A stretch of DNA of 62,766 bases, the filler included, from Basidiobolus ranarum (Eukaryota): the NCBI GenBank assembly GCA_040143965.1. It is 33 parts of 33 records of this genome, joined end to end, with 100 filler letters (N's around TTAATTAATTAA, not from the genome) between each part and the next. Parts side by side here need not be neighbours in the genome. Positions count along the whole stretch, not along the records: positions 5,743 to 7,555 come from JASJQH010004281.1; 32 more parts are not named here. One strand, written 5' to 3'. Shown piece by piece: positions 5,031 to 62,766 of this stretch. A program made the translations under genes and the position numbers. How positions within the stretch are numbered: position 1 is the stretch's first letter; each line of letters begins with the position of its first letter. The notes beneath the pieces are model-generated. The model saw nothing but the letters and a program-made list of their open reading frames with translations, made no database searches and was not told where the DNA came from.

Positions 5031-5742
5031 TATTCACGTTTATATGCTAATTGAAAATTTTGAAAATTTATTGATCTATATTCCAATGCTTGAAATATAG
5101 AAAATTTATTTATCAATCATCCCATCACCATATTCTAATCTACAGGGAAATATTTCTAATAAATACTAATGAGAGATCCCAAATTCTTACAAATCGGATT
5201 ATTTTTACCAAGAAATAAATTAACATTCCAAGATCACAGTTAATAAAAATCCAACAAAATTCATGATTTTTAAAATATTCTTAAGAGATTATTAGAGTAT
5301 TCAATATGCTATAAATTGAACTATCCGTTTACTAGAAAATCATTTTAATGGTTTTTCAAATGGTTAAGTTTAAATAATCATTTCCAATTGAATTATATAT
5401 GGAAATGTTGATGACAAATTAAAAATTCTTTATAAGTGAAAGGAATTCAATCGAATTTTCTTTCATTTTCTATTTATATAGTGATTCTAGAACGGGATTT
5501 AACTTGTGCGATACAGGGGCGTTGGAAAGATGAGGGGGCGGGGGGGTAAAATATGGGCATTGGCAAGGGAGAGAATTAAAATAAATTAAGATAAAATATT
5601 TTTAAAAAAAATAATGATACAAAATTTTAAAAATATATAATANNNNNNNNNNNNNNNNNNNNNNNNNNNNNNNNNNNNNNNNNNNNTTAATTAATTAANN
5701 NNNNNNNNNNNNNNNNNNNNNNNNNNNNNNNNNNNNNNNNNN

Positions 5743-6021
5743 GCGAGCATCACCCCACCACTCCGTATGCTGGCAAGTGAGCTCATAGTAGCGGGCATCA
5801 GCCCAGTCGGTACATTGGCCATTGTTGAAGCGGAAGCTGCGAGAGCAAGAGGCCAGCACGCTGATATTAGCGAGTTTACTGGATGTGCTAGCTACCTCAG
5901 TTTGGTTTGAAGAATTAGGAGCAGCAACTGTATTGTGAGTTGGTAGGGCTTCAACGGAAGAGGCTATGAAAGTGGCAGCTGCGAGAAACACGCAAGATAA
6001 AGGAGATGTAAGATTGACCAT
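5743..6021 (-). CDS. Secreted CHAP-domain peptidoglycan hydrolase, N-terminal half (runs off the contig end)
   Basis: Signal peptide (CVFLAAATFIASSVEA-LP) and S/T/N-rich linker, then NGQCTDWADARYYELT...WWGDAR, matching the CHAP catalytic Cys motif GQCT and the downstream WG-N/D-A motif. Confidence 0.85.
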
Positions 6022-6087
6022 TTTGATGTTTAGTAGTAAGTTTCTAACAGTAAGCCAGTACTACTTATAACTTAGCTTCGATCCCGC

Positions 6088-6094
6088 TTATATA
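6088..6094 (-). promoter_or_regulatory. Candidate TATA box of the CHAP gene
   Basis: TATATAA on the minus strand about 70 bp upstream of the ATG at 6021. Confidence 0.5.
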
Positions 6095-7290
6095 CATTTT
6101 TCTTGCCTCCACCATCCATTTGAGTTAGTAATCATTCTATGTGACTCACAGGTCCCAGTCCACAGTTTTTTATTATTAAAAATGAAAGGGCCTCGGGAAC
6201 CATAAGAAGAAACTTTGGGATTGCCAAAGATATAAATTTCAATTGTGAACAAATTTCTGGAGCTATTTACGATGCAATCTGATGTGGCTTTGAAAGACCA
6301 TTTGTGAAAGTATAGACTGTGACCAGTAAGGCAATTACGTTAATCGTAGGCAGTTCAGTAATCATTAGAAAATACGAGTGCCTAGTATTAAGCTGGATGT
6401 TGGGGCTCATATTGAATTTGAGTTATATAACTTGTACTGCAGTGTAAACAGTTGATTGAGAAAAAGGTATCTTTAATGACGACCAAGGTAGTAACGAATA
6501 TCAGTATAATCAGTAAAATATACAATATCAACTCACTTAAAAAATGGGAGGCAAGTATTGGTGAGTTTATGTTGTGTACAAGTTACATCACGTTGCTTCA
6601 ATGACTTGAAACGACAATTGCAGTGAGATTTTTTCGGGTTCTTCAATCAAAGTGGTTCCGGTGTGTATGCACCAATGAGTTTCATTCAGCTCTCATGGGT
6701 TGAAAATTACAACTGTAACATGACCTTTAGGGAAGTTTGCCCGGATATAAATCAGTGCTCCCGTATAGATAGCAATAAGTTCTATTCAGTCTGTTAATTT
6801 ATAGATCCCGATCCATACGTCCCAATCATATTTTTCTTTATATCGTAAATAACCCAATAGAATCAAAATGAGAGTGTTGTTCTTTACTATCGTGACTAAA
6901 AGGATCCAGTTTTGTGGACTTAATGTATAGAGAATGATTCAAAAGCGCATCTCCATGAAGCAACTGATCGAGCCATCTGAATCTGATTGAAAACTATTTG
7001 ATCCTAATTTGGATAAAAGAAATCTAGATTTCATATTTTCAACCTACTCATGTTCACTAGGTAATCGGACAATAAGGGTGTGAACTGGTGATTGAAATTA
7101 TGAAATCTATTTATATACAAAATCACTTAAAACTAGACAACTTGATCAGAAATTTTAACCATTCGCATTATGATACCACGTTGTGAATGAGTAGAATATT
7201 TATTATTTGCGCTTATTGAGCATGAAGTTTGAAATCTGCACAGCAGATAGTTTGTCTATTCTGAATTTCTTTTAGGCCTTAACAACGATT

Positions 7291-7555
7291 CTATTGATGC
7301 CAGAGGAAGGATACTCCACTGCCAGTATTGAAGTTTCCATAGGATGTAGAATAAACTCCGCCTTGCCCGTTGAACTTGTAGTTCCAGTTACTGGTGTACA
7401 CGCTTCCATCATTATTTATACGCTCTACAACGGCGACATGCCCTGTTGATCCACAGCCTTGATAGCCTGGCTGAATGACAATGATGGAGGGAACGCGTGG
7501 TTGACTAGAGACAACCCATCCGTTGACATTGCGGGCACTGTTGGGCCAGGTGCGA
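7291..7555 (-). CDS. CHAP-domain hydrolase, C-terminal half of an upstream tandem copy (absent from the ORF track)
   Basis: Manual translation of 7554-7291: RTWPNSARNVNGWVVSSQPRVPSIIVIQPGYQGCGSTGHVAVVERINNDGSVYTSNWNYKFNGQGGVYSTSYGNFNTGSGVSFLWHQ*. GHVAVVE is the CHAP catalytic His motif. Confidence 0.88.
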
Positions 7556-8389
7556 NNNNNNNNNNNNNNNNNNNNNNNNNNNNNNNNNNNNNNNNNNNNT
7601 TAATTAATTAANNNNNNNNNNNNNNNNNNNNNNNNNNNNNNNNNNNNNNNNNNNNACTGCTAGGAGATCATGAAGTCAGAAAATTTGCTTCCTTTATAGA
7701 ACAAGCTGAGAAGCCCTCCCTTGCCTACAAGGAATACTTGGTGGACCTTTGGCAGCAATATCTTCAGAAACACACTCCCTTTATGCTTTATGTTAATCCT
7801 AGTCTCATTCCACTAATTTCAATTGTTGACAAACCATTTTTACCTTTGTTACTCCCTCCCACTCCACTTAATAGTGTCTTAGACTCTACTGACTTAACTT
7901 TTCTACTTTGCAACATTCATACCAATACTCCTGATCTCCATACATTAGTTAAGAAACTACAAAAGTAGTTATGCCTTCTTTGTTTTGTTTGAAAGAAAGA
8001 TTTCACCTGTTGGTGACTGTCTCCCCCCCTAAGTGACATTGCTATCATCCCCTTGAATGTCAGATAGATGACGTAAGTTGGCAAGTAAGAGAAGGGTTGT
8101 GCCGTAAGATATATTCAGAGAAAGTGCCTACCAGATGATACTATCTCACCTTTTCTAAAGCTGATAAAAAGACTTCATCGTTGTGGAGCTACTTTTCGCT
8201 TCTGATGTGCGTAAAGCCTTTATCCACCATTAGATATTCTTGAATCTCACAGGAAAAATGCAGCGCAACCGCTACTCGGATACTTCTGGATTGGAATTGG
8301 AAAAGATTTATTTACCACCTTTAAAATTCTATCATTAACGTTATTATACTAAAATTTATCTTCATAACAGCCCGACTTGAATAACCAGA

Positions 8390-13063: not shown

Positions 13064-13136
13064 TGGTCTGGCCAAGATTTGAACCTGGGACCTCCTTCAC
13101 TCTAGCAAGGTGCTCTAACCACTGAGCTACCAGTCC
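13064..13136 (-). pseudogene. tRNA-like sequence (pseudo-tRNA or SINE head), nominal anticodon AGA
   Basis: Folds as GGACTGG-TA-GCTC-AGTGGTTA-GAGC-A-CCTTG-CTAGAGT-GAAGG-AGGTC-CCAGG-TTCAAAT-CTTGG-CCAGACC-A. A and B boxes are present; the acceptor and anticodon stems each have a mismatch. Confidence 0.75.
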
Positions 13137-13519: not shown

Positions 13520-15198
13520 CCTTCAGTAATTAAACTGCCTTCATTTCTAAATGGTGGTTTGGCTTTCACTGGTGATCTAAAAACCTGAAGTCATGTACTG
13601 TTTGCATACAATTGGCAATCACTGAATCAGGTAAATATTGTTCATATTTGGCTTACATACCATTGATTCCCCATCTTAAAGTTTTGATAAAATCTCCCAA
13701 ATATAGATCATTGATCCAATACCGGAGTACTCACGGTAAAGCTGATGGTATTACCAATATACTTGATGGATATCACTACCAGAATCTGCAAAGTCAAGGT
13801 TTCTTTGAGAACACATATGATCATGCATTTGCATTGGCTCTGGATGATTTCTCACTAAACAAATTTACCTTTGGAAAGGCTTGCTGGCCGATAATTTTAA
13901 TCAACTTAAATCTTCCTCTTTCTGAACAGTATAAGAGTCATAATATTTTGATACTATCCATCATATCTGGACCTAAATCACCGGTGTGTATAGATAGCTT
14001 CTTGGAGCCTTTGATTGTGGAACTTGAATGGTTATCTAATAGGGTTCAGATGGGTGAATATTTTATCAAAGCAAATATTGTTTTATGTATTGTTGACACT
14101 CCTGTCATAAGTAAACTTGGAGGTTTTTGTGGGCAAAATGCACTATCTTGCTGTAGATTTTGTCAAATCAATGAAGTTTAATCTATCAGGCATATGCTTT
14201 ACTACTATCTAAATACAACAGTAAACTCCATGACTTTACCTTCAAGAGCCTGGTCAGATTTCAACATGATCACTGATATCAGTTCCCCAAATAGTCAGTC
14301 TAACATCAAACTTGGTATTAGCCAATGGCCTAAGATTATATTGTTAAAGAGGATCAGCTGGAGCTAGAGCTTCCTATCAGGCACTATGCATTTACAATTC
14401 AACAACATCACAATACTACTTACTCAGCTATATAGTGGAAAATTAAATATGAATGAGCCATTTGAGTTAGGATCAAAGTTTGAATTGATTGGGAAAATGC
14501 TTGAAAATGGAAAGGTACCATCATATTTTACCAAGACTCCCATCAATATCCACTCATCTAGGCATTTATTCAAATGCAAAGACTGGAAGTATTGGATTTG
14601 TATATATTCAAGTAGAATCTTGTCAAGACTTCTGCATGATAGTTATTGGCAACAATGGGAGTTGTTTGTGGACATTATTAATATATTTTTAAGGCATCAA
14701 CTTACATTGGCAGATCTCAGTCCAATACAGCAACTGTGCAGAGATTTTGTAATTGGATATGAAAGATGTTTTTACAAGTTTAAAGAAGATAGACTGAATC
14801 TATGCCAGTATTCAATACATTCCCTGCTGCATCTTTCACAATGCTTAGAGATTATAGGCCCTTGCTGTACATTCTTGTAGTTCCCAATGGAGTGCACCTG
14901 CAGTGAAATGATGCTCTGTGTGAAATTGTCACTATTACTGTATGCTAATCTGCTTAACAATGTATCAGCAAAATCAGTGATGGATGTAATGCAATGGGTT
15001 AAGGAGACTCCAGAGTATATTAACCTTCCAACAAAGGGCTCTTTTCAATGTACTCAGGGGTTTTGCATTGTTTGAGCATAATAACAGCTACAAAGCCCAA
15101 GCCATGAATACAGAGTAAGTACATCAACAATTTGGACTAATTTGTTTTTGTGATAATCTGATGGTATTTTTAGGAAAGCTGCAAAACAGACTTCTTGC
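13520..15198 (+). mobile_element. CACTA/En-Spm Transposase_21 (Tnp2)-like pseudogene
   Basis: DG..Y, LALD-D/G-F, CWPIILINLNLP..E, IISGPKSP..DSFLEPL..EL, CRFC, then DWKYW and SIHSLLHL..C....GP.....FPME motifs, with many stops. Confidence 0.85.
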
Positions 15199-21023: not shown

Positions 21024-21906
21024 CCTTCCGCCTTGCACTCCCAGCCAATTTCAAAGTCCACAATGTAGAGTCTCTTAGAGCCACATGTCAGAAACACCTT
21101 CCAGGGCCAATCCATTGACCCACCTCCAGCAATTCAAGTGGAAGAACACCCAGAATATGAGGTTAGCAAAATTCTAGATTCCAGAATTTATCGACGTAAA
21201 TTGCAATATTAAGTGGACTGGAAGGGTTATTCAACAAATGATCAATCACGGGAGCCAGCAACAAATCTTTCCAATTCCAAGGAACTTTGCCAGGAGTTTC
21301 ATGAAGCCTACCCAGAAAAACCTGGCCCTATGATTTCTGGAAGCCATTACTAAAAAAGGGGATACTGTCATGATTCTGATCTTGGTATACTGATCCACAG
21401 CAAATAGAACTCTTCTATTATTAGATTATGACATCATATCAGATATGCCATCCCTTCTTGGCAATCTGATGTCAGTTCACCCAGATTACCTTATATGGAA
21501 ATCATGTTCTTTGGAACATTCCATGCAACCTAACCAATCATGTCATCCCACACATGGTGTATTTCCACCAAGACCTTCCATGGAAGGTCACCTGATCATT
21601 CTTACTTCATCCTTACATCATCCCTCTTTGTATTGGTCCTTGTAGTCCCCAACACCCCAACTCTCAAACTTGCGACAGTATATTCCCTATTCAGTGTATT
21701 ATGTTTCACCTTGCAATATCTATATAAGCCCCATGTATTCCTTGATCAGATCTCAGTCTGATCAATGCCAGTTATCACTAAAGATTCTTGCCAAAGTATC
21801 TTCTTTGTCCAGTCTTGTCTTGTCTTATGGTCTATGCCCAAACACTCTCCTGTCTTCTAGCCTCTTGTTGGTGTTTCCAGTCCTTCTCAAGTTTCTTATT
21901 GTGACA
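21024..21906 (+). mobile_element. Ty3/gypsy chromovirus 3' end: chromodomain, PPT (21352-21365) and 541-bp LTR (21366-21906)
   Basis: EYEVSKILDSR...LQY*VDWKGYS....S.EP..NL chromodomain, AAAAAAGGGGATAC PPT and TGTCA...TGACA LTR. Partial LTR copies at 26743-26853 and 45469-45673 (rc). Confidence 0.9.
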
Positions 21907-22492
21907 GTTGTTGCATAGTGCATGAATAGTGCCTGATAGGAAAGTCTGGCTCCATCTGATTGCTTTAGCAGTATAATCATAGGCTGTACTGCTAGTACCA
22001 AGTTTGATGATGGACTGACTCTGTGGTGAGCTGATAACATTGATCATGTTGAAATCTGTCTGGGCTCTTGATGGTAAAATTGTGAAGTTTAGTGTTGCAT
22101 TTGGATAGTAGTAATGCAAATGCCTATTAGAGTAAACTCCATTGATTTGACAAAATCTAAAGCAAAACAGTGCGTTGTGCCTGCAAAGGCCTCCAACTTT
22201 ATTGATGGCAGGAGTGTCACTAATACATATAATGATATAAGCTTTGAAAAGTATTTGCCCATCTGAATCCCATTGGATAAACATTCAAATTCCTCAATTG
22301 AAGGGTGCAAGAAGCTATTTATAAGCCATGGTGATTTAGGTCAAGATATGATCGAAAGTATCAAACTATTATGACTCTTATACTGTTCAGAAGGAGTAAG
22401 ATTTGAGTTATTTAAATTTATCAGCCAGTAGATCTTCCCAATTGTAAATTGGCTCAGTGAGAAACCATCCAAAGCCAATGTAAATACATAAT
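21907..22492 (-). mobile_element. CACTA-like transposase remnant
   Basis: DTPAINKVGGLC.HNAL..FRFCQINGVYS motif. Confidence 0.75.
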
Positions 22493-30452: not shown

Positions 30453-30663
30453 NNNNNNNNNNNNNNNNNNNNNNNNNNNNNNNNNNNNNNNNNNNNTTAA
30501 TTAATTAANNNNNNNNNNNNNNNNNNNNNNNNNNNNNNNNNNNNNNNNNNNNGCGGCACAATTTGGCACTATCCATCACCCTCTGGCATGATCAATTTCA
30601 ATCACATTTACTTTAATATATTGATCCAAGGTCCAATAAATCCTGGCACAATGGAACAAGTCC

Positions 30664-31500
30664 TATATTTGGGTGATTTCATCAAAACTTTAAGACGGGG
30701 AATCAACGGTATGTAAGCCAAATATGAACAATATTTACCTGATTCAGTGATTGCCAATTGTGTGCAAACAGTACATGACTTCAGGTTTTTCAGATCACCA
30801 GTGAAAGCCAAACAACCATTTGGACATGAAGGCAGCTTAATTACTGAAGGATTATAAGTCATACAATTAACGAGTGTTTTCCACTTGTACCAGGTCTGTG
30901 GCAAGCGACAGTTGCCAATCAACAGTGGTAAAAGAGTAAGAAAATCAATAAACACCTGGTTGCTAAGACTGGATTGAACTTGCCACTCCTCAATAATCAA
31001 AGTTGCTTTCTTTACTGTGAGTGTTATGAGTGGACTAATGTTTGCTGATAACAAAGAGTCCGTAACAAAACCGTTGTCTTCTTCTTCAACTTCTGATATA
31101 CTACCATCAGTACTGGAGTAACCAAGGTCAACATCTAGCAGCAAGTCCTCAAAGTTGTCTGGACTTACTGGTTCAACTAAAGTTGCATTTTGACCTACAT
31201 CATTCTGGTCCTATAACTGTGGTAACTCCACGGTATGTTGACCTTTGGCAGTGTAACCAAAACTTTGAGGCAAGCTACATTCAGTGGACCCTATAGGCAA
31301 AACTAAAGTCAATTTAGTGCACTTATTGCTGTTGTTATACACCAGGCTTTGTGCAGATGGTGACTTTGTACAGTGACCATGCTGTGATTATTTTTTCTAT
31401 GAAGCCTCTGGCTTTCATAGCACAAGAATTTGCAACAATGATAGCAGGGCTTCTTTAAACATTTGTGTTGCAGCATGAGAAGGATATTATAGAAAAAAGA
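30664..31500 (-). mobile_element. CACTA-like transposase N-terminal region
   Basis: CPNGCLAFTG....LKSCTVC...YIPLIPRLK is typical of the Transposase_21 N-terminus. Confidence 0.8.
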
Positions 31501-32456: not shown

Positions 32457-32945
32457 CAAAGTCCTTTTTCTTGCAGTAGCATTTTCATTTATATTTCAAA
32501 ACTTGATAATTGGTTCCATTTGATTTTTCAGATGAGGGAAAAGTTCCATAGATTTGAGAAGTAGACATTACAGAGAGTGCAAGCTTGGGGCTCATAACCT
32601 GTTAAAGTATTTGGGAGCCTGTTGGAAGTGGTTTAGAGAATAAAGGGAATTGGTGGTTTTCACTTATTGATTTATAAGTTAAAAGTTGACATGTATAGTT
32701 TTGTCAAGACATAAACAAACTAAGATGTAGAATGTGTTAAGGAAGGTCCCAGGAATATATGTGCAAAGTTTGGGGCTTCAGACACAAGTTTGAAATATCC
32801 ATATATCTGAGAACTTCAAAGTAAGTAAAATATTCTAAGTAAATTCCAATCAAGAATAATTGATAATATCTTAGTGAAATATAAGATAACTGAGTACTAA
32901 GTTATATATGACTACATAGGTGTTAAGGCAATGCCAATTTCAACA
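32457..32945 (-). mobile_element. Copia family B 5' end: complete LTR (32600-32945), PBS (32587-32599) and gag start
   Basis: TGTTGAAATT...TTTAACA followed directly by GGTTATGAGCCCC. Confidence 0.9.
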
Positions 32946-34259
32946 ACATCCAATTACAAAATCTTTACACAGTTGCTGTATCTGCCTGAGATCTGCCAAT
33001 TTGAGTTGATGCCTTAAGAATTTATTAACAATATCAACAAACAACTCCCAATGTTGCCAATGCTTATCAGGCAGAAATCTTTTCAAGATGCCACTTAAAT
33101 ATATACAAATCCAATACTTCCAGTCTTTGCATTTGAATAAATGCCTAGGTGAGTGGATAATGATGGGAGTCTTGGTAAAATATGATGATATCTTGATGTT
33201 TTCAAGCATTTTCCTATTGAATTCAAACTTTGATCCTATATCAATTGGCTCATTCATATTGAATTTTCTACTATATAGATGAGTAAGTAGTATTGAAATG
33301 TTGTTGAATAGTGAGTGGATAGTGCCTAATGGGAAGCACTGGCTCCAGCTGATCCTCTTTAGCAACATAGTCTTAGGCTTACAGCTAATACCAAGTTTGA
33401 TGTTAGACTGACTATTTGGTGAATTAATACCAGTGATGATGTTGAAATCTGACCAGGCTGTTGATGGTAAAATCATGGAGTTTAGTGTTGTATTTGGATA
33501 TTAGTAAAACATATGCTTGATAGAGTAAACCCCATTGATTTGATAAAATCTACAACAAGATAGTGCATTGTGGCTACAAAAACCTCCAAGCTAACTGATG
33601 GCAGGAGTGGCACCAGTACATACAATGATATTAGCTTTAATAAAATATTCACCCATCAGAACCCCATTAGATAACTATTAAAATTCCACAATCAGAGGCT
33701 CTAAGAAGCTATCTATATGCACTGGTGATTTGGGTCCAGATTTGATAGATAGCATCTAAATATTATGACACTTATACCATTCAGAAGGAGGAAGATTTAA
33801 GTTGATTCAAATTATTAGCCAGGAAGCCTTTCCAACAGTATATTTGTTTAGTGAGAAACCATCCCAAGCCAATGCAAATGCATGATCATACATACTTTCA
33901 AAGAAACCCTGACTTTTCAGATTCTGGTAGTTATATACATCAAGTATATTAGTAATATAATCAGCTTTATAGTGAGTACATTGATATTGGATCAATGATC
34001 AATATTTGGGTGATTTCATTAAAACTTTGAGACAAGAAATTAATGGTATGTAAGCCAAATATGAACAGTATTTACCTGATTCAGTGATTGTCAATTGTGT
34101 GCAAACAGTATATGACTTCAGGTTTTTCAGATCATTGGTGAAAGCCAAACAACATTTGGACATGCAGGAAGTTTAATTACCAAAGGATTACAAGTCATAC
34201 AATTGACTAGTGTTTTCCACTTGTACCAGGTCGGTGGCAAGCAACAGTTGCCAATCAAC
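32946..34259 (-). mobile_element. CACTA-like transposase pseudogene (host of the copia B insertion)
   Basis: FALAWDGF and HLFKCKDWKYWICIY motifs. Confidence 0.85.
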
Positions 34260-53376: not shown

Positions 53377-55175
53377 CTTAAAGTAGATCCCAAAATCCGC
53401 CGTACTCTTTTGGAAATCAAGTGATTCCAAGTATGTGTCTATCTTAGTGTACCAGGCCCTGGGTGATTGTTTAAGTCCATAGAGTGATTTCTGTAGCTTA
53501 CACACATCCTCTGGGTGCTCAGGATCCACAAAACCATCTGGTTGATCCATGAATATATCCTCTTCTAAGTCAACATTTAAAAAAGCAGTTTTAACATCCA
53601 TTTGATGGATTTTCAAGCTGTGTTTTGCTGCTACTGCTAGTTTGGTTTGGATGGAATTAAACTTTTCTACAGGAACAAAAGATTCATTGTAGTCCACTCC
53701 TTCCATTGGATAGTATATTTTAGCCACAAGTCTGGCTTTTTATCTCTCTACAGATCCGTCAGCTTGCTGCTTGACTTTAAATACCCATTTGCATCCAATT
53801 GATTTTTGGTCAACTGGAAACTTAACCAAAGTCCAAGTTTGATTATCAATGAGTGACTGTTACTCCTCTGCCATTTTAGCACTCTAAAACTTTGTGTATG
53901 GACTCTCCATAGCCTCCTGTACTGATTTGAGTTCATCAGAAAAGGCTAAATTGGCACCAGGCTCCATTTGGCTAGTGTGAGAGTAGTAATAAGGCACAGA
54001 TCTCATCCAATTGGATCTCCTAAGATGAGAAATTGGCACTACAACTTGTGGTACCAATTTAGGCAATAAAACAACCTCAGGCTTGGTTGAGGACACTGCA
54101 GGTGAGAGATTTTCAGTGTTTTTCTCACTGATCAAGATCTGGTGAGAGAAAGTAGAATTTTCATCAATTTTTGGTTGTTTTTCTTGATCCTGGATTGTTT
54201 TGACTGAAAATTTTTCTTCTTCCACAAATTCCACGTCCCTTGACTTGATTAGCTTCTTATTTTCAGTGTCATATAGCCTGTACCCTTTTGTTCCATCACA
54301 ATATCCCAAAAAAAGACATTTCTGGCTTTTTTGGTCTAATTTTGATCTCTTCTGGTCTGGAATCATTGCATATGCAGTACTTCCAAAAACTCTGAGATTA
54401 GCCACATCAGGTTTACTTCCAAACCAAGCTTGATAAGGTGTCATAGCCAATAGAGACCTAGAAGGACATCTATTCCTAATATATACTGCAGTTGCAACCA
54501 ATTCAGCCCAGAACTGTTTTGGTAAATCTTGATCATGAAGCATTGATCTTGCCTTTTCCATTATTGATCTGTTTGCACGTTCTGCTACTCCATTCTGCTG
54601 TGGAGAATATGGCACTGTAGTCTGCTGTTTTATCCCATGTGTTGAGCAGAAGTTAGAGAAGAGTTTTGAGGTATATTCCCCTCCATTATCTGTACAGATA
54701 ATCTTAATCTTTAGACCTGTTTTGGTCTCCACCATTACTTTGAACTTCTTGAAGGTATCAAAGGCTTCATCCTTACTGGCCACAAAGTACAACCAAGTAT
54801 ACTTTGTCATATCATCAATAAAGGTCATAAAATACCTTTTTCTGCCAAAGATTTTGTCTACATTGGGCCACACAGACCTGAGCATATCAGGCCTCATTTA
54901 TGATCAATTTTGCTCATTCCAGAGCCCAGAAACAGCTGTCTGTGTTGCCTACCATATAGGCAACCTTCACATAGCTCCAGATCCAGTGGAATTACAAAGT
55001 TTAGTCCCAAAACTATGTTGTGTTTGATTAAATTTCTCATATTTTCAGCTCCTAGACGACCCAATCTCCTATGCCAGATTTTCCAGTCTATCTCTTCAGC
55101 TGTGGCAGTATTAACTTGTTCATATATTGGCCTAATGTAATGAAGTTTATACAAGTTATTTTGCTTAGCTCCAGA
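53377..55175 (-). mobile_element. pol: Relatively young copia pol (GAG-pre-integrase, integrase, RT) with few frameshifts
   Basis: WHRRLG, CEGC, FIDD, TDNGGEY, PQQNGVAERANR, HQMDVKTAFLN and LYGLKQSPRAW in integrase-before-RT order. Confidence 0.95.
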
Positions 55176-57173: not shown

Positions 57174-58280
57174 ATTTGAATGATTGGATCAGGAGAAAAT
57201 TGATTTTTGTCATCATCTGAGGTCATTTTGGGTGAAAATTTTTCATTTTCATTAAACAAAACATCCCTGGACTTGATTAACTTGGAAATTTTGGTATCAT
57301 AGAGTCTGTAGGCCTTAGTTTGAGTACAATAACCCAGAAATATGCATTTCTTACTTTTTGGATCAAATTTAGACCATTTTTTGGTCATAATTTTGACATC
57401 AGCAATGCATCCAAACATCCTCAAATGTTTTACATCAGATTTAACTCCAAGCCAAGCTTGCTATGGTGTAGAGTTAGACAGACTTCTAGTAAAACTCCTA
57501 TTCTTCAGATATACAGCTGAAGCAACAGGTTCCACCCAAAAGTTATGAGATAATTTTGTGCATTTATCATAGATCTTGCCATTTCTATTATAGTCCTGTT
57601 AGCTCTTTCAGCAACTCCATTTTGTTGAGGTGAATAGGGGGCAGTAGTTTCTTGCTTAATTCCATGAACTTTGCAAAAGTGCTTAAATAGTGTTGAAGTA
57701 TATTCTCCACCATTATCAGTACGTATTTTCTTGATTTTAGTTCCAGTTTCAGTCTCCACAAGTGTTTTAAAATCTCTAAAGATAGAGAGAGCTTCTTCTT
57801 TTCTTTCCATAAAGTAGACCCAAGTGTATCTTGTATAATCATCAATAAATGTGATTAAATATCTTTTTCTGCCTAAAGATAAATTTTGCATAGGTCCACA
57901 TAAATCTGTATGAGTTAGATCCAATTTTTGGACAGATTTGATTAAATCAGAGCTCTTGAACAGTTGCCTGGCTTGTTTTCTAAATATACAACCCTCACAA
58001 ATTTCCATTTTGGTGGGGGGATTAATTTGAATTCCAGAAATTAGGTGATTTTTGATCATTTTGCTCAAATAATCCAATACAATATGGCCAAATCTCTTAT
58101 GCCATAATTGAATAGTTTCTTGCTTGGAATAACTTATATTTACACATGAATCTCTTGGATTATATGTAAGTTTGTATAATTTTGATCCTTTTCTCCCAAA
58201 GCTAAATAATTCCCATTTTGATCAGTGATGGTGCATCCTGACTTATCAAAATTGAATTTTAACCCTTCTGAGGTGGCCTT
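57174..58280 (-). mobile_element. Copia integrase region
   Basis: HTDLCGPM, FIDDYTRYTWVYF, RTDNGGEY and PQQNGVAERANRT. Confidence 0.92.
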
Positions 58281-61891: not shown

Positions 61892-62766
61892 TGGGGGGGA
61901 GGGGCCCGTAGGTTGATCGAGAGATAGCCCCCATAAGATAGCTGGGTTATCTGGTACAGAGCCAACCCAGTGCTTCGCTCTTTATTATCCCCCTCGGTAG
62001 AGGGGAGGGCCCCTTTGGAGGGGTCCCCAGGGGGGGGGGCAACCCTTTTCATACCAGGGGGATCGAAAGAGAAAAGGGGTGAGTTTGGTTTAATAGCTAA
62101 TTTATGCTATAAGTGAGCCCCCCCCATCTGGCCAACCGACCGAACCCCCCCCCGAAAGGGGGGGGGGGGGTGGGGGGCCCCCCCCCGGGCGGGGGCGGGG
62201 TGCCCCGGGCCCCGCCGGCGGGGGGGCCCCGCGGGGGGGGGAAGCCCGGCCCCGCCCCCCCCCCCCCCGGGGGGGGGGGCTTTACGGGGCCCCCCTGGGC
62301 AGTTTTATTGCCCCCCCGGTGGGAGAAGCCATAGGGGGGGGGCCACCCTCCCCCCCCCACCTGCCCGTAGGCCCCCGCCAAGGAGGGGGGGTAAAAGGCC
62401 CCCCCCCTAGCTAAGCTAGGGGGGGGTGTAGGGTTGGGTGGGGGGGGAATTTATCAATTGATGGGGAGGCTTCCGGGAGTGGGTGGGGGGGAAAAGCAAA
62501 AGGCCAAAGGGATCGGCCCCGATAGTAGCTGCAGAGCCGGTAGGGGTTAATTAGTCCAGATCTCCCCCCACCCCCTACCCGGGGGGGTGGTCACCCGAAG
62601 GTGCACCCCCCCCTTAGTGTGGCCCCCCCATTGGTAGAGGGGGGAGGCTGGTCCTTCGGCAGGGGGGCTCCCCCCCCCCGGTAGGGGCCCCCCGAAAGGG
62701 GGGATATTCCCCCCCCCGGCCGGGGGGGGGGGGGGGGCGCCCCGCGGCGGGCCGGGGGGCGGCCGC
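61892..62766. other. Low-quality G/C homopolymer-rich contig tail
   Basis: Abrupt shift from AT-rich gypsy sequence to long G and C runs that worsen toward the contig end. Confidence 0.8.

Follow-up and report, generated by a model that had tools for sequence, protein, structure and literature searches.

A Putatively Secreted CHAP-Domain Gene of Apparent Bacterial Ancestry on a Permuted Contig of Basidiobolus ranarum Belongs to an Expanded Fungal Family

We examined a 62,766-nt stretch of the Basidiobolus ranarum assembly GCA_040143965.1, referred to here as the window, and found on one of its contigs the two halves of a gene for a putatively secreted CHAP-domain enzyme of apparent bacterial ancestry. 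The contig is one circularly permuted unit, in which the end of a CHAP gene comes before the start of a CHAP gene on the coding strand. We favor, with a probability of about 75%, the explanation that it is Basidiobolus-like nuclear DNA and represents one unit of a tandem array of a secreted CHAP gene of bacterial origin. The gene is a further member of an already deposited, unstudied fungal CHAP family, in a genus known for heavy gene uptake. The relatives recovered by sequence comparison fit a history in which a CHAP gene of bacterial ancestry would have entered fungi in one old transfer and then expanded, as opposed to a recent gain.

A permuted gene unit on an isolated contig

As a pseudomolecule, the window strings together 33 unlinked contigs, laid out in descending size, from 1815 to 1797 bp, and separated by 32 identical 100-bp artificial linkers, each made up of 44 N, TTAATTAATTAA, and another 44 N. 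Apparent linkage across any of these linkers is not genuine. The CHAP finding occupies exactly one contig (positions 5743–7555, 1813 bp) and has no physical link to any other gene of the window. Read on the minus strand, this contig gives the C-terminal half of the gene with its stop codon, then a 1269-bp spacer, and then the N-terminal half (Table 1). The N-terminal half opens with a methionine followed by hydrophobic residues and finishes with ...GQCTDWADARYYELTCQHTEWWGDAR, and the C-terminal half contains PSIIVIQPGYQG, GHVAVVE, and TSNWN. The GC content is 0.50 in the coding halves, against 0.346 in the spacer and 0.44–0.48 in four open reading frames (ORFs) on other contigs of the window.

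The two ends of the contig share 4 bp, and an end overlap of at least 4 bp occurs in 1 of the 33 contigs, the CHAP contig itself. Joined by script over this overlap, the halves give a protein of 179 amino acids (aa), stop-free and in frame, which we call the window protein. It reads WWGDAR and then TWPNSA across the junction and is colinear, with no gap or duplication, with its closest relative, P0001 (WWGDARTWPSSA), a 179-aa protein of B. meristosporus CBS 931.73 (K493DRAFT_368928) to which it is 82.7% identical over the full length. As a control, virtual end joins of the other 32 contigs yielded chance frames of up to 214 aa from ORFs running off the contig ends; an open frame is thus not discriminating, and the argument for a permuted unit is based on colinearity with P0001. 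No second CHAP copy was found in the window.

Since the coding strand carries the C-terminal half ahead of the N-terminal half, the spacer is either intergenic DNA between two copies or the closure of a circle, and not an insertion within a gene. The unit most likely derives from a collapsed tandem array, the assembler having, we infer, circled once through near-identical units. The contig would then be one repeat unit of a head-to-tail array of near-identical genes, linearized at an arbitrary point in the coding sequence, and each gene of the array would encode a small, intronless 179-aa protein. For genome assembly, the lesson is that a gene split over both ends of a small unplaced contig can flag a collapsed tandem array.

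Alternatively, the contig might run from the middle of one paralog to the middle of the next, a different one, in which case no gene in the genome would equal the 179-aa join and the abutment of the two halves would be an accident of assembly. In a tandem array, the two halves of such a contig do belong, by position, to neighboring copies, and relatives carry clusters of diverged paralogs on one contig (60–86% identity). Identity to P0001 also differs, at 72% for the N-terminal half and 94% for the C-terminal half, which could point to different partners, although signal and linker regions are generally less conserved across the CHAP family. Both ends, however, break at the same codon, with the 4-bp overlap and without gap or duplication relative to P0001. 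Breaks in two diverged neighbors are unlikely to coincide to the base, which argues for an assembler walk around a cycle of near-identical units, or for a circle, and the walk would explain a base-exact coincidence directly. We consider an origin from two different paralogs unlikely.

Predicted secretion, catalytic residues, and fold

Taken by itself, the C-terminal half matches the Pfam CHAP family PF05257, which is MEROPS family C51 (E = 5.4e-10, 40.1 bits against a cut-off of 26, profile positions 29–80 of 81). The N-terminal half alone has no Pfam match at E up to 1, because only about 25 CHAP residues lie in it. P0001 served as the proxy for the window protein in structural comparisons and large searches, the two being 94% identical in the CHAP domain; its full domain matches PF05257 over profile positions 6–79 of 81 (E = 2.6e-15, 57.1 bits). 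Pfam scans of the two window halves and of P0001 detected no SH3b or LysM wall-binding module.

The N-terminus resembles a signal peptide (Table 1), and the (S/T)EALP motif is common to the paralogs P0001, P0002, and P0009. On this resemblance, the 179-aa protein is predicted to be secreted: the signal peptide would lead it into the secretory pathway, and a disordered linker open to glycosylation would follow. A first-pass annotation of this DNA had described a single gene plus spacer encoding a CHAP enzyme with a eukaryote-style secretory N-terminus. The features it listed (halves at 6021–5743 and 7554–7291, the motifs, a TATATAA, and an AT-rich spacer) are all present, and its domain assignment is borne out by the PF05257 match above the cut-off and by the conserved Cys and His. 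A hydrophobic core at residues 7–20, V-E-A, and a linker with sequons likewise agree with the secretory N-terminus it predicted. Its picture of a single gene and spacer holds insofar as the 179-aa join reads in frame, but the unit proves to be permuted and sits on an isolated 1.8-kb contig.

Cys70, His131, and Asn150 are invariant in an alignment of 15 fungal and bacterial sequences. Among the 46 fungal proteins described below, Cys70 and His131 are each present in 45 and Asn150 in all 46, and Asn150 is found in 14 of 14 bacterial proteins checked. In solved staphylococcal CHAP domains (5t1q, E = 6.6e-17; 2k3a, E = 1.1e-15), these residues have their counterparts in the GQCT, GHVA, and S-E-x-N motifs, and the Cys and His motifs also line up with those of 2lrj and 9eum. 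The Glu and the Asn of S-E-x-N correspond to Asn148 and Asn150, two candidates for the third triad residue.

In the AlphaFold model of P0001, block means of the predicted local distance difference test (pLDDT) are 89–97 over residues 71–179, except for 67 at residues 151–160, and residues 1–59 are disordered, with pLDDT below 50. Two helices are followed by six strands, with a helix beginning at residue 70 and a strand at residue 131. The proxy thus has the papain-like alpha+beta CHAP fold, and its top 12 Foldseek matches in the PDB are CHAP domains or CHAP-type peptidoglycan hydrolases, the best being 5t1q (E = 7.8e-7), the hub of phage phi812, 2k3a, PcsB, LysGH15, and CHAPK. The solved staphylococcal and phage CHAP hydrolases (5t1q SAOUHSC_02979, 2k3a, the SsaA-like 2lrj, the phi812 hub 9eum, LysGH15 4olk, CHAPK 4csh, and PcsB 4cgk) have the same fold and the same Cys and His positions, and cell-wall amidase or endopeptidase activity is known or annotated for them or for their families. 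They are 18–27% identical to P0001 in structural alignments, and the acidic residue of their S-E-x-N motif is Asn in the window protein.

The best-supported reading of these sequence features is that a signal peptide leads to secretion and that a Cys/His pair would cut a stem-peptide bond. The C-terminal ~115 residues would form a papain-like CHAP amidohydrolase with Cys70 as the nucleophile and His131 as the base, oriented by Asn148/Asn150. Outside the hypha, the enzyme would cleave the stem peptide of bacterial peptidoglycan at an amide or peptide bond, and bacteria of gut, dung, soil, and insect cadavers might be lysed or weakened as a result, for competition or for nutrition. Solved CHAP domains comprise both amidases and endopeptidases, so the bond that is cut is not deducible from sequence. 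Because some CHAP domains are amidases of compounds other than peptidoglycan, the substrate is not proven, and the bacteriolytic or feeding role is a putative one.

The enzyme might instead be secreted for another purpose, such as trimming peptidoglycan against immune sensing by insect or amphibian hosts, acting on a gamma-glutamyl or amide substrate in the manner of glutathionylspermidine (Gsp) amidase, or remodeling the fungal surface. The fold search does extend to the Escherichia coli Gsp amidase (3a2z) and to a trypanothione synthetase (2vob, E = 2.8e-2), and the family is retained in the obligate insect pathogens Entomophthora muscae and Massospora cicadina, where host immunity counts. 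Yet the top matches in both sequence and fold are all cell-wall hydrolase CHAP domains, with the E-values of Gsp amidase about 1000 times weaker, and in the nearest bacterial relatives CHAP follows a probable membrane segment, as expected of enzymes acting on the cell's own wall. We rate such other roles as unlikely.

Three additional cysteines, at residues 59, 83, and 126 (codons 5847–5845, 5775–5773, and 7455–7453), are all present in the window protein. They always occur together, in one Basidiobolus subgroup that makes up 13 of the 46 fungal proteins (P0001–P0009, P0269, and P0271–P0273), and are absent from 14 of 14 bacterial proteins checked, which have Gly at position 83 and Ala or Ser at position 126. 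This co-occurrence hints at a disulfide that may have been gained after transfer.

A fungal CHAP family and its bacterial relatives

Homology searches placed the window protein among proteins of its own genus. In a word-indexed search with the C-terminal half, the best 14 of 102 matches come from B. meristosporus or B. ranarum (60–94% identity), and the remainder are bacterial or metagenomic, the named ones being Thermogemmatispora or Ktedonobacteraceae at up to 67–68%. With P0001 as the query, phmmer run exhaustively recovered 955 proteins at E ≤ 0.001. Among the 150 of these matches listed, representatives 1–12 and 14 are from Basidiobolus and number 13 is a Thermogemmatispora tikiterensis cluster; lower representatives include three from E. 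muscae and one from M. cicadina, and a search from one of these added three more from E. muscae. In a profile search built on 12 fungal sequences, the first 36 matches are 34 Basidiobolus and 2 E. muscae proteins, and no eukaryote other than these is named among the best 120 of 123 matches.

The family comprises at least 46 fungal proteins (B. meristosporus 20, B. ranarum 19, E. muscae 6, and M. cicadina 1), counted as representatives of 90%-identity clusters, some of which may be alleles rather than paralogs. The relatives sit on fungal contigs of 83–268 kb in B. meristosporus and 120–260 kb in E. muscae and M. cicadina. Clusters of paralogs are present: K7432_005993, K7432_005994, and K7432_005995 share one 19,377-bp contig, three members lie on one 122,520-bp contig, and the locus tags DSO57_1023045 to 1023047 are consecutive. 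Shared contigs and consecutive locus tags fit tandem duplication of CHAP genes. Pairwise identity among P0001, P0002, P0003, P0006, and P0009 is 60–86%.

These clusters bear on a further explanation of the contig, that the unit is an extrachromosomal circular DNA of ~1.8 kb, instead of or besides a chromosomal array. Circular DNAs can arise from tandem arrays, and the contig does close on itself in frame. The relatives, however, carry their CHAP clusters on chromosomes, and the unit shows no replication-like function, the spacer holding no ORF longer than 83 aa and no Rfam match. We give a circle only a slim chance, and a chromosomal array remains our preferred source of the contig.

The closest fungal proteins are named "Peptidase C51 domain-containing" in B. 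meristosporus and B. ranarum; these names are automatic and the proteins are unstudied. Such proteins, P0001 for example, are like the window protein in length (179 aa), layout, the cysteines at 59, 83, and 126, and tree clade. P0001 and the window protein are not identical, and P0001 is either a close paralog or the ortholog in a different strain or species of Basidiobolus; in the window, the gene occurs solely in permuted form, on a contig that is unplaced. Four other Basidiobolus proteins of 237–249 aa (P0010, P0011, P0013, and P0014) carry an extra N-terminal Cys-rich module of ~55 residues (C-P-x-G-N-G-L-Y-C-G ... C-x-x-G-C) and an Asn-rich linker preceding CHAP. The module matches no Pfam family and may be a binding module. 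In E. muscae, P0184 (322 aa) and P0185 (474 aa) have long Pro-rich tandem repeats before CHAP, with units like PNPNPYPNNPFLPKKP, and differ from each other chiefly in repeat number.

Outside the fungi, the nearest named relatives are from Thermogemmatispora, Ktedonobacteraceae, and Dictyobacter, at ~60% identity. A scan of prokaryotes (one genome per species, alignment-derived patterns) confirmed 262 relatives, and the best 76 of these 262 loci comprise 63 from named Ktedonobacteria (Thermogemmatispora, Ktedonobacter, Dictyobacter, Thermosporothrix, Tengunoibacter, and others), 11 from "uncultured Chloroflexia", and 2 from "Chloroflexota bacterium". An earlier prokaryote scan with P0001 alone had given 129 pattern matches, none of them confirmed. 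The Ktedonobacteria proteins, 300–360 aa long and labeled "CHAP domain-containing protein" or "surface antigen", are ~60% identical to the fungal ones in the CHAP domain and have in common with them the motifs GQCT.WA, PSIIV.QPG, and GHVAVVERIN.DGSVYTSN.N. Their CHAP domain is C-terminal and follows a low-complexity N-terminal region, one hydrophobic and probably membrane-spanning segment (judged by eye from the alignment), and a QAATATAV.QDG linker. The fungal proteins lack all three of these elements and share CHAP alone, with a predicted signal peptide of their own and an unrelated linker. Four Ktedonobacteria genomes hold 3–10 CHAP matches each, often in back-to-back arrays. One genome has six head-to-tail CHAP genes ~1.3–1.45 kb apart (G004:C1:6649313-6656443, loci L078 and L082), and another has three (G003:C1:1391859-1394835, L079 and L084).

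A quick tree of 228 rows was built from the window protein, 24 Basidiobolus proteins, 127 other phmmer representatives, and the 76 named loci, leaving out P0113, ten short-match rows, and all but three of P0015–P0102. Basidiobolus forms one group in it (support 89), joined by four Entomophthorales rows (96) and then by a group with CHAP at the N-terminus; in reduced quick trees the fungal clade has support of 95 and 96. We also inferred a careful maximum-likelihood tree of 101 rows and 116 columns, with 25 Basidiobolus proteins including the window protein, 7 from Entomophthorales, 27 of the 76 named loci, 16 representatives of the N-terminal type, and 15 others, rooted on 11 of 39 CHAP sequences from IMG/VR as the outgroup. 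All 32 fungal rows form one clade here (100/99), with an Entomophthorales clade inside it (99/96) and the window protein in a five-row Basidiobolus clade with P0001 (98/81). The sister of the fungi is P0117, a metagenome protein of Ktedonobacteria architecture (88/81), followed by 40 rows of Ktedonobacteria type (89/86), with the N-terminal type basal. The ~115 alignment columns limit the resolution of these trees.

The N-terminal-CHAP group (P0129, P0131, P0211, and others) was considered as the donor and set aside, being basal in the careful rooted tree and not the sister of the fungi. Its members, P0121, P0129, P0131, P0171, P0181, P0211, P0237, P0241, and ~30 further phmmer representatives, begin directly with CHAP, lack a signal peptide, and end in a hydrophobic tail; the motif LISNDGF.GIALA.DEAE is present in some of them. 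No close relative of the group turned up in IMG/VR (none in one search, at most 45% identity in another), in phage records (at most 42%, all Staphylococcus phages), or among plasmids (at most 45.5%). Searched against 301 sampled Chloroflexota genomes, it matched 21, at no more than 60% identity among the matches listed, many of which end directly at a stop codon, as expected of a C-terminal CHAP domain.

In an approximately unbiased (AU) test, monophyly of Basidiobolus was not rejected and gave a slightly better tree (p-AU 0.56). The gene tree thus accommodates a single gain that predates the split of Basidiobolus and Entomophthorales, with separate expansions afterward, and within these fungi it is compatible with vertical descent. 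In our favored explanation, CHAP would have been acquired once, probably before that split, from a bacterium of Ktedonobacteria type, in which a membrane-anchored protein carries it as an extracellular C-terminal domain. A eukaryotic signal peptide would have taken the place of the N-terminal region and anchor of the bacterial protein, and the gene would then have multiplied, largely by tandem duplication. We hold a longer history with less than even confidence: a single, very ancient transfer from a Ktedonobacteria-like mycelial soil bacterium to the ancestor of Basidiobolus and Entomophthorales, after which the gene may have been refitted and amplified to dozens of copies, some of them in arrays of near-identical units that are still expanding, as the closure of the contig on itself suggests, to form a lineage-wide antibacterial arsenal. 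Some paralogs would have gained the N-terminal Cys-rich or Pro-rich modules and one subgroup the extra cysteines, with catalysis kept intact.

Several observations weigh against our explanation or against parts of it. The two halves may stem from two non-identical neighboring copies, which would make the 179-aa protein a composite. The fungal sister shifts across trees, from the N-terminal-CHAP group to no resolved sister, a Dictyobacter group, and then P0117, and an AU test that placed the 58 bacterial ingroup rows in one clade did not reject this arrangement (11.2 log-likelihood units worse, p-AU 0.24), so that a position of the fungi within the bacteria sampled is favored, not proven. The patterns of the genome scan were drawn from this CHAP subfamily and are biased toward it. 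Asn148, aligned with the Glu of S-E-x-N, varies among N, D, and A in relatives, and Gsp amidase does appear in the fold search, far lower than the best matches (E = 1.6e-3). TATATAA and AATAAA are frequent in AT-rich DNA, and TATATAA, present three times in the contig, is weak evidence alone.

The first-pass annotation had also proposed a gain by horizontal transfer, named contamination as the outcome that would overturn it, and suggested a likeness to Ktedonobacteria CHAP proteins. A bacterial origin agrees with the nearest non-fungal relatives, which are bacterial CHAP proteins, and the suggested likeness is matched by the ~60% identity of the best named bacterial proteins and by the Ktedonobacteria or Chloroflexota affiliation of the best 76 of 262 loci. 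The gain itself is neither private nor recent, the at least 46 proteins from four fungal species forming one clade, and the nesting in a bacterial clade that the annotation looked for is favored by the tree but not significant. A bacterial contaminant of the sequenced culture is very unlikely as the source of the contig, and we give it almost no weight, for even though the 1.8-kb contig is linked to nothing and its CHAP domain is of bacterial type, the closest proteins come from four independent fungal assemblies with contigs of up to 268 kb, the window protein lies inside the fungal clade beside P0001, its N-terminus has a eukaryote-style signal peptide and sequon-bearing linker and not the bacterial N-terminal region and hydrophobic segment, the 1269-bp spacer (GC 0.35) beside a 0.5-kb gene is unlike the tightly packed bacterial matches lying ~1.3–1.45 kb apart in frames of ~290–390 aa, and the coding GC of 0.50 is near that of four ORFs on other contigs of the window (0.44–0.48) and the B. 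meristosporus coding mean of 0.49 (PMC7466969).

Table 1. Positions of the CHAP gene parts, putative signals, and contig boundaries in the window.
Feature	Positions	Strand	Basis
Stand-alone contig; circularly permuted CHAP unit plus intergenic DNA, period 1809 bp	5743..7555	-	Ends overlap by 4 bp (TCGC)
Artificial linker (44 N + TTAATTAATTAA + 44 N)	5643..5742	.	Left boundary of the CHAP contig
Artificial linker	7556..7655	.	Right boundary of the CHAP contig
N-terminal coding half, residues 1–93	5743..6021	-	Signal-like start, linker, and first ~25 CHAP residues; 72% identity to P0001 residues 1–93
Predicted signal peptide, residues 1–25	5947..6021	-	Kyte-Doolittle hydrophobic core at 7–20; V-E-A before the likely cleavage point
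S/T/N-rich linker, residues 26–58	5848..5946	-	N-x-S/T sequons at 36, 39, and 52
Cys70 codon, putative catalytic Cys of GQCT	5812..5814	-	Invariant; aligned with the GQCT Cys of solved CHAP domains
C-terminal coding half, residues 93–179 (87 aa), most of the CHAP domain	7294..7554	-	PF05257 match; 94% identity to P0001
His131 codon, putative catalytic His of GHVAVVE	7438..7440	-	Invariant; aligned with the His of GHVA in the solved staphylococcal domains
Asn148-Trp149-Asn150 codons	7381..7389	-	At the position of the staphylococcal S-E-x-N motif
Stop codon TAG	7291..7293	-	Sequence
AT-rich non-coding spacer, 1269 bp, GC 0.346	6022..7290	-	Separates successive gene copies
TATATAA, possible TATA box, 73 nt before the ATG	6088..6094	-	Motif position
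AATAAA, possible polyadenylation signal, 87 nt past the stop	7199..7204	-	Motif position only; putative function

The other contigs of the window have Pfam content of eukaryotic type, which is not diagnostic: a DUF3533 membrane protein, a RING/zinc-ribbon protein, Transposase_21, and a copia-type integrase. Fragments of one transposase family lie at 13576–14181 (+), 14368–14880 (+), 21832–22284 (-), 30608–31210 (-), and 32940–33500 (-); the first matches Transposase_21 (tnp2) in Pfam (E = 2.5e-13), and the others share its motifs by eye. Copia-type integrase fragments are found at 53884–54897 (-), with rve and a retroviral SH3-like domain, and at 57505–58221 (-). The last contig (60970–62766) has a GC content of 0.548, against 0.30–0.43 in the others, with a G/C-rich low-complexity stretch at ~62100–62450 and ORFs that resemble reverse-transcriptase fragments by eye. 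A tRNA gene at 13064–13136 (-), scoring 53.8 bits, is the sole Rfam match in the window.

Precedents and significance

The nearest published parallel that we found is in the oomycete Saprolegnia parasitica, for which one study describes seven secreted CHAP genes, duplicated and of proposed bacterial origin, with no donor named (PMC3681718). Like the fungal family, it is a family of secreted proteins expanded by duplication in an animal-associated filamentous eukaryote, although one of a different kingdom. No Saprolegnia protein is among the named matches of our homology searches, in which no direct comparison was made, and the two families were probably acquired independently. Other bacterial wall hydrolases domesticated by eukaryotes, and biochemically proven, are the Dae amidases of ticks and other animals, the NlpC/P60 enzymes of Trichomonas, and GH25 lysozymes. 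The evolutionary logic would be the same, a bacterial wall enzyme fitted with a eukaryotic secretion signal and directed at bacteria, but the families differ (Tae-type, NlpC/P60, and GH25). Pfam scans gave CHAP only and no homology to Tae or Dae amidases (E up to 1 for the halves and up to 0.1 for P0001), no direct sequence comparison having been made.

Tabima et al. (2020) listed 806 candidates for transfer from bacteria in B. meristosporus CBS 931.73 (PMC7466969). The main text of that paper, whose gene lists are in supplements, does not mention CHAP, peptidoglycan, Ktedonobacteria, or Chloroflexi, and the fungal CHAP genes may already be among the 806. With so many Basidiobolus transfers already reported (PMC7466969), the surprise is moderate. 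The family also goes unmentioned in the available portions of a survey of transfers into 44 early-diverging fungi (PMC11291939), a survey of protein-family expansions (PMC8778642), a preprint on 19 Basidiobolus genomes, and a preprint on the E. muscae transcriptome. Full-text literature searches returned nothing on a CHAP domain in Basidiobolus or Zoopagomycota, and nothing specific on transfer or peptidoglycan in Entomophthora or, as far as titles indicate, on transfer between Ktedonobacteria and fungi.

What is new here is one early-diverging fungal lineage with a large CHAP family of apparent bacterial origin, nearly all members of which are catalytically conserved. To our knowledge, only a handful of eukaryotes turn borrowed bacterial wall enzymes on bacteria, and fungi account for few of these. 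Basidiobolus inhabits the guts of amphibians and reptiles, where its interplay with bacteria is under study, and Entomophthora and Massospora kill insects. If the ancient transfer outlined above is true, the CHAP arsenal of these gut-dwelling and insect-killing fungi would be comparable to the Dae amidases of animals and far more expanded. The family offers testable candidates for the means by which gut- and insect-associated fungi may shape their bacterial surroundings, as well as a source of small, single-domain enzymes of putative lytic activity.

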